This document shows, piece by piece, positions 35,335 to 38,510 of a stretch of 64,000 nt of DNA. Under the pieces are notes generated by a model, which searched no databases, had not been told where the DNA came from, and saw nothing but the letters and a program-made list of their open reading frames with translations. Numbering within the stretch: the stretch's first letter is position 1; every line of letters starts with the position of its first letter. The stretch is from the NCBI GenBank assembly GCA_963668625.2, contig CAXXKA010000006.1:1-64000 (forward strand), given 5' to 3'. The position numbers and the translations under genes were made by a program. This DNA comes from an uncultured candidate division Zixibacteria bacterium. Its GTDB lineage: Bacteria; Zixibacteria; MSB-5A5; UBA10806; 4484-95.

Positions 35335-35478
35335 GATACACTCCGGATTTAATGCGGTTTGGTACTTTTATTTACATTGAAAAACTTTTCTTAGTAAGAT
35401 GTAGTTCCTTTAGTTACGAGCAAAATGCTATATACGGATAAGAAAGTAGTATTTAATTTTGATAAGGAAAAATATGGT

Positions 35479-36561
35479 ATGAAATCCAATCATGTCCTGG
35501 CAATCGGGGTTGCCATTGCCCTGACAGTCTCATCGCTTTCTTTCAGCTTACCGAAATTCACCGCCTCCTCGGAGCAGAAATGTAACCTTTGCCATGTAAG
35601 CCCCTCGGGCGGCGGTATGAGAAACGATTTCGGGGCGCAGTTTTTCGCTATGACAGAGCTGCCGGTTCATAAAACCGAGTTCGAGCAGATCGAGAAGTTC
35701 CAAACCCGAATATCCGATATTATCTCACTTGGCGCGGATATGCGCACATTATTCAACTATGATGAGGCAACCGATCAAGCCTCGTTCTTTCAGATGGAAG
35801 GGAACCTTCATGTATCGGCTCAACTTGATGACAAGTTCTCGCTGACAATGAGCAAAGGTATCTATGATGGTTTCGAGATTTACGGCATGGGGTACGTTTT
35901 ACCGATGCAGGGTAATTTCCGGGTAGGCAAGTTTCAACCATCCTATGGCTGGCGTTTTGCCGATCATACCTCATTCGTACGGGAGAAAATGCTGTGGTCG
36001 CCCGGCGCTACCGATACCGGTTTCGAACTGGGATTATTCCCGCACAAATTTTCGATTAACGTAGGTTTGTATAACGGAACCAGTGGTACTTTCGATAACG
36101 AGAACAGCAAAGCGCTGTCATCACGAGTTTCATTCCGTCATAAGATAGCCGGTATCGGTTTCGGAATCGGTGGATCTTATTGGATAAATAATCATGATAG
36201 CGGCGATGTTACGATGTTCGGTCCTTTCGGGTATATCAATCTGCTTCAAGGCAAGCTTATCTACATGGGAGAAATCGATTGGTTGAAGGATGAGAACGTT
36301 ATCGGCAAGCCTACCCGGGAGGCTACCACCAACAAATTAAGTTTCAAACTCAGGCAGGGGATATGGTTGAATGCCGGTTACGATTTTTACGATCCGGATA
36401 TTGACCTGGTTACCGGGCGAGTTAATCGTTATGGTATCGGAATCGAGTATTTCCCCTATGGTTTCTTGGAAATACAGCCGAATCTCTGGTATTATGAGGA
36501 TGATTTCGCCAGTGATGATAAATATATATTATTCAACACGCAGATGCATTTCTTCTTTTAA
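35479..36561 (+). CDS. Outer-membrane beta-barrel with N-terminal CxxCH heme motif
   Basis: Signal peptide, CNLCHVSPSGGG, alternating beta-strands, terminal Phe (MHFFF). Confidence 0.8.
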   Translation: MKSNHVLAIGVAIALTVSSLSFSLPKFTASSEQKCNLCHVSPSGGGMRNDFGAQFFAMTELPVHKTEFEQIEKFQTRISDIISLGADMRTLFNYDEATDQASFFQMEGNLHVSAQLDDKFSLTMSKGIYDGFEIYGMGYVLPMQGNFRVGKFQPSYGWRFADHTSFVREKMLWSPGATDTGFELGLFPHKFSINVGLYNGTSGTFDNENSKALSSRVSFRHKIAGIGFGIGGSYWINNHDSGDVTMFGPFGYINLLQGKLIYMGEIDWLKDENVIGKPTREATTNKLSFKLRQGIWLNAGYDFYDPDIDLVTGRVNRYGIGIEYFPYGFLEIQPNLWYYEDDFASDDKYILFNTQMHFFF

Positions 36562-36581
36562 AGGAGATGGTACGATAAAAG

Positions 36582-36800
36582 CATCTTGCTAATCTATTCT
36601 GTTGGTGTTAGAGCTTCGGTAATGAATTTCTAACTGGAGCGGATAGGTTATAGGCTGAACTGAATGCTTGAGGCCAGACCTCGTAAAGGAGATTAATCAG
36701 ACCTGTAACCGAATTGCCACCATAAGGCAAAGACCTTGAATAGGAGTTTGGTAGGCGCCGACAGAGAGTCTGCTCCAGTGATAACCATAGAATGGAGCAA
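36582..36800 (+). ncRNA. Predicted IS110 bridge RNA (ends approximate)
   Basis: Stem ggttatagg/cctgtaacc encloses a loop with TAAAGGAG (target match); second loop carries ACCAT and ATAGGAG (donor-junction matches) around inner hairpin aagg/cctt. Confidence 0.7.
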
Positions 36801-36804
36801 GAAG

Positions 36805-37818
36805 ATGAGGTACTTAGGAGTAGACCTTCACACAAACAGTTTGACCGTGTGTTGCCTGACAGCCGGTGGTCGGGAGAGGATCAAGGAGTATCGGCTAAAG
36901 GATCTAAAGGAATTTAAACGAGGATTAAAAAAGACGGATTGTGTAGCGGTTGAGGCCACTGGCAACACTCGTTATTTCGTTGATGAGATATCGCATTTGG
37001 TCAAGCGAGTTGTTGTCGTCGATCCGAACAAATTTGAGATAATCAAATCATCAGTCAGTAAGACGGATGAAAACGATGCCAGGAACTTAGCCTATTTTAT
37101 GAGCAAAGACATGTTGCCGAAAGCCCGATTAAAGACGAAAGATAAAGCGCAGATCAGTTCACTTGTTGGGACACGGGACAAGCTGGTCAAGTTACGTACA
37201 GCTTTGAAGAATAAAATACACAACATACTCAATCATCATGGTATCAAGAGTAAAAAGGAGGCCTACTCCAGCAACAAGAGTTTGGAGCGGGTTCTAAAGA
37301 TGAATTTTGATGAGGTTGTTTCTGTTGAGCTTGAGGTATTGGTTGATCAGATTCGCAGTTTGAATGAGGGGATAAAAAAGCTGGACAAACAGATAGAGGA
37401 TCAGGGTCGCAAGTTGAACGGGCATAAGAACCTGACCAGCATCAAAGGAATCGGCAGCAAATCAGCTACAGTGTTGCTTTCGGTAATTGGTGATGTTGCT
37501 GATTTTTCGGACAAAGATAAATTGGCCTCATATTTTGGCGTAGTGCCGCGAGTTTCCAATTCAAACGAGATTCAGCATCATGGTCGGATTACCAAGCGTG
37601 GTTCTAAGATTGGTCGGACTACACTGGTGCAGTGTACGCTTGTTGCCATACGATATAACCATTACTTGAGTAAATATTACAATCGTATAAAAAACCGTCG
37701 TGGCAGCGGTAAGGCTATCATTGCCACAGCCAGAAAATTACTGGGAATAATCTATGACACCTTGAAAAATAATTGGGTGTTTGAAGATTTCCCTAACTTT
37801 GTGTTAGCAAACAGATAA
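36805..37818 (+). CDS. IS110 family DEDD recombinase/transposase
   Basis: GVDLH, VEATG, KTDENDA (DEDD); C-terminal GIG...LASYFGVVPRVSNS...GRITKRG, ATARKL. Confidence 0.96.
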   Translation: MRYLGVDLHTNSLTVCCLTAGGRERIKEYRLKDLKEFKRGLKKTDCVAVEATGNTRYFVDEISHLVKRVVVVDPNKFEIIKSSVSKTDENDARNLAYFMSKDMLPKARLKTKDKAQISSLVGTRDKLVKLRTALKNKIHNILNHHGIKSKKEAYSSNKSLERVLKMNFDEVVSVELEVLVDQIRSLNEGIKKLDKQIEDQGRKLNGHKNLTSIKGIGSKSATVLLSVIGDVADFSDKDKLASYFGVVPRVSNSNEIQHHGRITKRGSKIGRTTLVQCTLVAIRYNHYLSKYYNRIKNRRGSGKAIIATARKLLGIIYDTLKNNWVFEDFPNFVLANR

Positions 37819-37856
37819 CTGAAATTTGGAGTAGACTTTTATCATAGGAGTAAATA

Positions 37857-38510
37857 ATGAATACGAAATATCATTTCAATATCGGTGTAGTCGCGCTAGG
37901 CGCAATCATACTTATGATGGCCTGCTCCGATAAAGGCAGCGACCCGGAGAACAGGGCGCCCGAAATCACCTCGGCTTCATTAGTGGAAGCTTATATCGAC
38001 TCATCATTTTCGTATACCGCTACTGCCGGCGACCCGGACGGCACCACGCCAGTATTGCATTTCGAGAATATTCCGAGTTGGCTCGATACCTCCGCTAACG
38101 TGATCTCCGGGACAGTCGCCGGTAACGCTTCCGATACCTCGTTCACGGTGATAGCCTCGGATGACTTTCTGGCGGATACGCTGGGAGTCATAGTCGATAT
38201 CACCACACCGGCGGTGGTTATTTCCTATACCTCATCAGTGCAGCCGATATTTAATGCTCGTTGTGCTAACTCTGGTTGCCACTTGAATGGAGATAACAGC
38301 GGAGGACTGAGGCTGGACAGCTATACGCTTCTGATGCAGGGTGGTGGTTCCGGCAGCGTAATCACACCGGGAAATTCCAATAACAGTTTACTTGTCAGCC
38401 GTATCGAGGGGACGGTCGGCCAGAGAATGCCGCTCGGCCAGTCGGCGCTGTCTTCTCAGCAGATCGAAACTATTCGCACCTGGATAGAGCAGGGCGCTGA
38501 AAATAATTAG
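37857..38510 (+). CDS. Lipoprotein with Ig-like domain and c-type cytochrome domain
   Basis: Lipobox MMAC; DPDG Ig-like domain; VQPIFNARCANSGCH, RMP and WIEQGA (Planctomycete cytochrome C-like). Confidence 0.82.
   Translation: MNTKYHFNIGVVALGAIILMMACSDKGSDPENRAPEITSASLVEAYIDSSFSYTATAGDPDGTTPVLHFENIPSWLDTSANVISGTVAGNASDTSFTVIASDDFLADTLGVIVDITTPAVVISYTSSVQPIFNARCANSGCHLNGDNSGGLRLDSYTLLMQGGGSGSVITPGNSNNSLLVSRIEGTVGQRMPLGQSALSSQQIETIRTWIEQGAENN

Follow-up and report, generated by a model that had tools for sequence, protein, structure and literature searches.

The element and its insertion site

The window analysed here is a stretch of 64,000 nt (contig CAXXKA010000006.1, assembly GCA_963668625.2) from an uncultured candidate division Zixibacteria bacterium. 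It contains an insertion sequence (IS) of the IS110 family, which sits between two genes at a Shine–Dalgarno (SD) sequence (Table 1). The upstream open reading frame (ORF, 35425–36561) closes with a TAA at 36559–36561 and is directly followed by the left AGGAG, which 36560–36561 complete to AAAGGAG at the junction; the downstream ORF occupies 37857–38510. The element is made up of a 238-nt leader (36567–36804), the recombinase ORF and a 32-nt tail. Its ends, ATGGTACG.. on the left and ..TTATCAT on the right, lack terminal inverted repeats. AGGAG is the sole sequence common to both junctions, with no target duplication beyond this short core, and the crossover is therefore placed within it. As the right end terminates in (A/G)GGAG, insertion recreates an SD before the downstream gene. 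A contig from sequencing run X1 covers precisely 36561–37850.

A preliminary description, made from the letters of the window, had placed the element at 36559–37859, which exactly brackets it together with its flanks. It had also proposed that AGGAG stands at both ends and that excision restores a tight stop–ribosome-binding site (RBS)–start arrangement. The coordinates confirm this, and orthologous gene pairs without the insertion agree: in 5/5 loci read from relatives of the host (5 of 9 were evaluated, the other 4 left out), stop, SD and start lie within ~20 nt. As these pairs are uninterrupted, the insertion has split a tight operon junction. No terminator-like site was found on the + strand within the element, so that read-through may keep the operon expressed.

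Table 1. Coordinates of the element, its predicted RNA features and its flanks in the window, and of a second IS110-family element elsewhere in the host genome
Feature	Position	Strand	Remarks
Left AGGAG	36562..36566	+	SD core of the target; left target half plus proposed crossover region
IS110-family insertion sequence	36567..37850	+	1284 nt including one AGGAG; same length in all 11 copies
-10-like TACGAT	36571-76	+	Found by eye
Left arm of subterminal inverted repeat	36572..36581	+	ACGATAAAAG; from end-pair comparison
Bridge-RNA-like core	36636..36776	+	Closed by outer stem P0 (36636-43 with 36769-76)
Putative target-binding loop	36646..36710	+	Stem P1 36646-57/36698-710; 5′ strand 36658-68; inner hairpin 36669-83
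Candidate target guide	36685..36693	+	AAAGGAG 36685-91 (= left target flank) plus AU 36692-93 (= first two left-end bases)
Candidate donor guide GCCA	36716..36719	+	Complementary to left-end +5..+2 (TGGT); partial overlap with stem P3
Stem P3	36718-21 with 36750-53	+	Both-side changes in 1/4 pairs
Candidate donor guide AUAGGAG	36740..36748	+	AUAGGAG 36740-46 plus UU 36747-48; guide = right end
Transposase/recombinase gene	36805..37818	+	337 amino acids; DEDD RuvC-like and Tnp domains; own SD UGGAG at 36793-97
Right subterminal region	37828..37845	+	GGAGTAGAC 37828-36; TAGACT 37832-37; right arm of repeat CTTTTATCAT 37836-45
Right AGGAG	37846..37850	+	Regenerated SD of the downstream gene; followed by TAAATA and ATG at 37857
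Second IS110 element, five copies (L114-L118; genome G000)	C1:622956-623924, C4:59228-60196, C5:24615-25583, C6:580870-581838, C8:130664-131632		

The recombinase

The protein matches DEDD_Tnp_IS110 (PF01548, 51.4 bits) and Transposase_20 (PF02371, 78.4 bits) in Pfam, and scores 243 bits, against a cutoff of 140, with NCBIfam NF033542 ('IS110 family RNA-guided transposase'). It is also a distant match to the solved IS621 and ISCro4 recombinase structures (E ~1e-12). For IS621, the portions of the two reports drawn on here name D11, E60, D102, D105 and S241 as catalytic (PMC11208160 / PMC11208158). The candidate catalytic residues D7, E50, D88 and D91 (in GVDLH, VEATG and KTDENDA) align with ISCro4 over a weakly matching N-terminal stretch (i-Evalue 9.5). 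A serine-rich PRVSNSN lies near the expected position of the Tnp-domain serine, the exact equivalent residue being ambiguous. We hold it very probable that this is an active or recently active IS110-family (DEDD recombinase) element whose 5′ leader encodes a two-loop bridge RNA.

Copies and sites in the host genome

The host genome (4.30 Mb, 10 contigs) carries 11 copies at 100% identity, which implies that the insertions are recent. The alignment of flanks suggested in the preliminary description bore out its expectation. All 11 left flanks read (A/T)AAGGAG (AAAGGAG in 9, TAAGGAG in 2), and in all 11 the right AGGAG is followed, after 5–7 nt, by an ATG on the transposase strand; most copies from other genomes fit as well. 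The transposase gene is co-oriented with the downstream gene in every copy, so that the IS becomes an extra cistron. The ORFs opened behind the copies range from 34 to 758 codons, with at least 80 codons in 9/11; the two remaining copies precede ATG-started ORFs of 39 and 34 codons.

A census of AAAGGAG on both strands of the host genome gave 499 sites, 9 of which are left junctions of the element; the 490 'free' sites include the 11 guide-encoding ones within the IS copies. Under a crude rule, by which a site is RBS-like if a start codon 3–13 nt downstream opens at least 80 codons, 155 of the 490 unoccupied sites (32%) are RBS-like and 335 are not. Against this background, 9/11 occupied sites are RBS-like (binomial P = 8.9e-4). 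Further, T stands at +1 of the target in 9/11 own copies compared with 35/155 available RBS-like sites (P = 5.3e-5). Beside this, C at +1 is scarce across the clade (3/66 copies), and G36666 could wobble-pair with T at +1, the donor-loop handshake base being U. The idea that a target followed by AT is immune through pairing of the target-loop handshake was dropped: AT occupies +1/+2 in 1/11 own copies and in 18/155 available sites.

The same genome harbours a second IS110-family element of ~1.45 kb, in five identical copies, which has 28% amino acid identity to the present one. Its two flanks are mutually reverse-complementary (e.g. ..GGTGTCAGG / CCTGACACC..), and it occupies the loops of hairpin-forming inverted repeats, not SDs. 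The choice of location is thus element-specific.

Relatives across phyla

A protein-based scan that covered one genome per species yielded 160 related stretches. The best 80, with 52–64% amino acid identity, were kept and 70 of them analysed; ten loci (L054, L057, L069, L071, L080, L085, L087, L089, L090 and L091) were excluded for a protein match that was truncated, interrupted or frameshifted or that lay at a contig edge. By record title, the relatives belong to Acidobacteriota, Omnitrophota, Spirochaetota, Nitrospira, Alphaproteobacteria, Planctomycetota, KSB1 and others. The left and right end could both be placed in 68 of 81 copies (11 own and 70 foreign), and nearly all of these share one anatomy. 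On the left, ..AAGGAG abuts A(T/C)G(G/A)N A(T/C)GA..; on the right, ..CAT(A/G)GGAG is followed by a short spacer and usually ATG. Among 71 distinct right flanks, 54 have a start codon 3–14 nt away that opens an ORF; among the 17 that do not are short ORFs, truncated loci, three copies lying in a different repeat and a duplicated end fragment. The same layout is found on a conjugative plasmid of a cultured Tardibacter strain, where GAAGGAG is joined to CTGG, the guide is GUGAAGGAGCU, and CU after the guide faces a left end that begins with CT.

Three copies from metagenome-assembled genomes of Acidobacteriaceae (L068, L070 and L073) have the guide ACACGGAG and the right end ATGGGAG, lie after TTCACCACGGAG, and are followed by one or two more NCACGGAG octamers, a pattern suggestive of natural retargeting away from SDs and towards a short tandem repeat. 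At the right junction of L026, the end fragment ACAAACATCATAGGAG occurs twice in tandem, which may have been left by an insertion or excision that took place earlier at the regenerated site.

The putative leader RNA and its candidate guides

The leader, which the preliminary description had given as a 5′ non-coding region of ~240 nt, is a structured putative non-coding RNA in a long left end, with two internal loops. Its minimum free energy fold reaches -81 kcal/mol (z = -3.77), and 0/200 shuffles are as stable. RNAalifold was run on alignment A1, in which 40 of 58 unique leaders were retained (<93% mutual similarity). It predicts four helices, namely an outer stem, a long loop-enclosing stem, an inner hairpin and a second hairpin; the long stem encloses an internal loop that the inner hairpin divides. 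The stem GGTTATAGG/CCTGTAACC and the hairpin GAGG/CCTC, both described previously, appear in the minimum free energy fold as well as in this consensus. With the short extra stem P3 added, 95.6% of cells are paired and 20/34 pairs have changed on both sides. None of 500 shuffles reaches any of the five fold measures, and sliding the partner columns by 1–3 lowers pairing to 32–51%. For this count P3 replaced the RNAalifold pairs 137-138/194-195, in which UC was paired with the GG of AUAGGAG.

In the target loop, the columns that best match target positions -7, -6 and -5 are 36685, 36686 and 36687, with identities of 0.83, 0.97 and 1.00. The preliminary description had read the loop's 3′ strand, TAAAGGAG at 36684–36691, as identical to the target flank. 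The position is correct and AAAGGAG (36685–36691) covaries with the left flank, but the leading T at 36684 does not covary with -8; as target -8 has no partner column, the guide is taken as the 7 nt AAAGGAG. Copy by copy, guide and left flank agree at 7/7 positions in 58/72, with one mismatch in 13 and two in 1, so that the proposed covariation of guide and flank is indeed seen. Variant guides are matched by their own flanks: GAAGGAG in 3/5, UAAGGAG in 6/6, AGAGGAG in 2/2, UGAGGAG in 1/1, CACGGAG in 3/3 and AAUGGAG in 1/1. Further, the handshake-like AU (36692–36693) equals left-end +1 and +2 in 39/40 and 40/40 relatives, including 8 with AC.

The second loop tracks the element's own ends. The A or G that precedes GGAG at right-end -5 is identical to 36742 in 68/68 copies (identity 1.00). 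For GCCA and the left end, 152/160 cells pair, whereas shuffled ends average 137 and peak at 144 (0/2000 as high), and the signal stems from real switches at left-end +2 and +4. An alternative register, ACCAU (36719–36723) against left-end +5..+1, paired in 163/200 cells with 1137/2000 shuffles as high, and GCCA was preferred. Inside the ends, the subterminal inverted repeat also covaries: left-end (LE) +6..+17 and the reverse complement of the right end (RE) agree on average at 8.3/12 positions in 43 end pairs, against 6.4 (maximum 7.0) with shuffled partners.

Proposed mechanism and alternative explanations

Based on these observations, an excised circle would join RE to LE and thereby bring together a candidate promoter, TAGACT (37832–37837)–17 nt–TACGAT (36571–36576), noted by eye, that could drive both the RNA and the recombinase. 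In one relative, TTGACA-17-TATGAT stands at the corresponding place. The target loop would hold an SD through AAAGGAG, the AU after it matching the left end of the element as a handshake guide, while the donor loop would hold the RE–LE junction by two guides: AUAGGAG is identical to the right end, and GCCA complements left-end +2..+5. Exchange inside the shared AGGAG (a CT core opposite the transposase strand) would then place the element after the SD, and the element's own AGGAG end would serve the displaced downstream gene. The AG (CT in antisense) that adjoins the handshake bases fits a core dinucleotide; cleavage sites are not readable from sequence. We infer the production of, and requirement for, the bridge RNA, the exact cleavage positions and the junction promoter. 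As the guide RNA spells AAAGGAG, such an element lands just before genes and leaves a fresh RBS. This is in essence what the preliminary description had proposed, namely a target loop programmed for the SD and a right end that regenerates the RBS, and the 11/11 flanks and the covariation of guide and left flank support it. Its core inference holds, although it had included neither the donor loop nor the handshake positions and made no mention of the clade, of the 10 further copies or of the IS900/IS901 precedent.

The reading that we put a little above even chance goes further: a cosmopolitan IS110 clade would use a mirrored, 3′-strand-dominated bridge RNA that needs only a 7-nt SD-consensus half-site, mimicked by the element's own end, and would live as a co-transcribed extra cistron that hands the displaced gene a new SD. 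Several results weigh against the main explanation, that of an IS110-family element with a two-loop bridge RNA. About two-thirds of the free AAAGGAG sites are not RBS-like and none of these is occupied, so that the guide alone cannot account for the distribution. The 5′ strand of the target loop (36658–36668), in which the preliminary description had seen UGCU pairing with the other flank, is hypervariable. That register is the best diagonal, and among 55 site pairs (9 copies unfit for the extraction pattern being left out) position 36667 can pair with G(-1) in 85% and 36666 with +1 in 64%. 0/500 shuffles reach the latter value for this cell, but the 95th percentile of the maximum over cells is 0.69; the signal for a second target guide is thus only suggestive, not significant after correction over 80 cells, and gives nothing at +2 or farther out. 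Column-by-column covariation of the leader with right-flank +1..+12 also gave nothing convincing. The donor-loop handshake agrees with right-flank +1 in 28/66 copies (88/2000 shuffles as high), or 19/55 without the own copies, which does not support it as a determinant of the right flank. Further, the guide of L067 is CAAGGAG and its flank AAAGGAG, and the guide of L045 holds GUAG. The constancy of GGAG in the relatives is partly by construction, because the end-finding patterns require it; the covariation at -7..-5, right-end -5 and left-end +2/+4 is independent of that pattern. The shuffle counts overstate significance, as related sequences are not independent. Finally, a search of all Rfam families at a permissive threshold (36000–38500) found no match, which may mean that Rfam holds no bridge-RNA model.

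RBS-only occupancy may result from targeting, from the loss of gene-disrupting insertions, or from both. Under survivorship, the bridge RNA would specify AAAGGAG anywhere, and intragenic or wrong-strand insertions would be lost by selection. This account is compatible with RNA guidance and contests only the idea of an element aimed at RBSs; we regard it as a substantial possibility, somewhat short of even chance. It is favoured by the 335 free sites without RBS character, by the lack of a convincing guide for the spacer or start codon, and by right flanks that differ freely between copies of one element. However, the AAAGGAG motif is itself concentrated at RBSs in SD-using genomes, and the copies, recent as they are, still all stand before an ATG. 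The excess of T at +1 hints at an extra sequence preference, and both the right end, which regenerates the SD, and the fixed co-orientation have the look of an adaptation to this niche.

The two other accounts concern the RNA itself. In classical protein-mediated site-specific recombination, the similarity between the junction ATAGGAG and the target AAAGGAG would suffice, and the motifs in the leader would be incidental copies of the ends. Donor and target half-sites do differ at one base only, and in older literature, as far as the source used here relates it, the targets of IS117 and IS900 resemble their circle junctions (PMC1525189). We nevertheless think this account very unlikely: the loop-1 guide varies in step with the target, with a donor end that remains ATAGGAG or ATGGGAG; each of the two loops follows a DNA of its own; and compensatory changes conserve the fold. 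Less credible still is that the AAAGGAG and AUAGGAG loops, instead of guiding DNA recognition, imitate SDs and serve to bind ribosomes or to regulate translation of the transposase. Both are perfect or near-perfect SDs exposed in internal loops, but guides that make poor SDs, CACGGAG and AAUGGAG, match their own flanks, and the two bases after GGAG track the left end (40/40 at +2).

Comparison with known systems

In the parts of the IS621 literature used here, the core belongs to all four guide pairings and the handshake bases adjoin the 3′-strand guides (PMC11208160, PMC11208158). The donor order is RE, core CT, LE with the bridge RNA in sense, and diverse bridge RNA structures exist (PMC11208160). 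With IS621 and ISCro4, as those excerpts present them, the present element shares a DEDD plus Tnp recombinase, a predicted structured RNA in a long left end with target and donor loops each split by a hairpin, and guides that would base-pair to opposite strands flanking a common core. A putative CT core (here antisense to the transposase), two target-loop bases beside the core that match the donor, and a likely promoter across the RE–LE junction complete the likeness.

The differences begin with a sequence similarity of only ~1e-12. Relative to the same portions of the IS621 reports, the long sense-identical guides lie on the 3′ strands of the loops instead of the 5′ strands, and the putative core reads AG. 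As the guide strands are swapped, the present element is flipped relative to core polarity; the preliminary description was right that AG is CT on the other strand, which implies this flipped arrangement. Once the DNA is turned over, the IS621 rule holds exactly: the 3′ strand is then the reverse complement of two donor bases, CT and CCTTT in that order, and the long guides here become the 'right' guides. Even so, the target half-site is 7 nt with the second ('left') target guide almost absent, the donor 5′ ('left') guide is 4 nt long and skips the core, and the target is an SD in place of a repetitive extragenic palindromic (REP) element. Subterminal inverted repeats are given, in the part of the report used, as 2–3 bp in the IS110 group and 7–17 bp in the IS1111 group (PMC11208160). 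The repeat of ~10 bp found here thus departs from the former range and fits the latter. The seekRNA systems of the IS1111 group, as partly covered here, likewise involve RNA-guided target choice by a DEDD transposase, but encode the guide RNA downstream of the transposase, in the right end; in the present element it lies upstream, in the left end (PMC11187229).

A precedent for the target exists within the family. IS900 and IS901 of Mycobacterium avium are described, in the section of the source used here, as inserting upstream of genes, in the interval from SD to start codon (PMC2942039, citing Doran 1997 and Inglis 2003). The present element inserts between SD and start codon at the 3′ edge of GGAG and resembles them in reported site. 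IS900 is reportedly oriented such that an ORF opposite the transposase strand is expressed from host signals. Here, in contrast, the transposase runs in the direction of the target gene, and the right end rebuilds the SD. No link between bridge RNAs and SD/RBS targets or IS900 was found in the literature searched; an AAGGAG-type motif may be among those in the supplementary tables of Durrant 2024. The mechanism class is thus already known and the target class has a precedent within the IS110 family. What appears to be new is the explicit match between guide and SD, the breadth of the clade, the SD-regenerating end and the mirrored, one-sided guide layout.

Bridge recombinases are being developed into programmable tools for genome writing, and most of what is known of their natural target logic comes from the REP-targeting IS621. 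The present clade would have its guide set to the most widespread short motif of bacterial intergenic DNA. Target recognition appears to depend on ~7 nt of one loop strand, the roles of the loop strands would be swapped compared with IS621, and the donor end would be shaped such that the interrupted gene retains an RBS. If this is true, hundreds of potential sites per genome, before almost any gene, would be open to what is a natural 'minimal-guide, minimal-harm' bridge recombinase. It offers a testable case for the minimum length of a bridge guide, for a flip of orientation relative to the core, and for the limits that mobile elements set on harm to the host. Should IS900 and IS901 carry an analogous guide, the old observation of insertion between SD and start would gain a molecular rationale.

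Further observations

At the left end, 36567–36578 open with a start-like codon that abuts the SD, and an in-frame stop comes 3–4 codons later (ATG GTA CGA TAA). Relatives have ATG GCA TGA and ACG GTA TGA; the subterminal inverted repeat, too, includes the conserved A(T/C)GA. The GGAGTAGAC of the right end (37828–37836) is of the same word type as the 5′ strand of the outer stem (36636–36643), which reads GGAGCGGA here and GGAGTAGAC in most relatives. It could pair with the 3′ strand of P0 (36769–36776) and overlaps the -35-like TAGACT.

The assembled contigs of four sequencing runs contained neither an empty-site join nor a circle back-joint; contigs cannot reveal rare forms, so that this result is uninformative. 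Runs X4, X5 and X6, which are wetland and rhizosphere metagenomes from other studies, have contigs 99–100% identical to parts of the element, and one X5 contig runs beyond 37850 into a different flank, again with an ATG a few bases on.

The interrupted pair consists of an upstream gene for a 378-amino-acid protein (35425–36561) with no Pfam match and a downstream gene for a 217-amino-acid lipoprotein-like protein (37857–38510) with a PSCyt1 (Planctomycete cytochrome c) domain. Of 20 related genomes searched, 11 gave a match to the 378-amino-acid gene. Stop, SD and start come after it in the 5 loci read, so the gene pair appears to be conserved.

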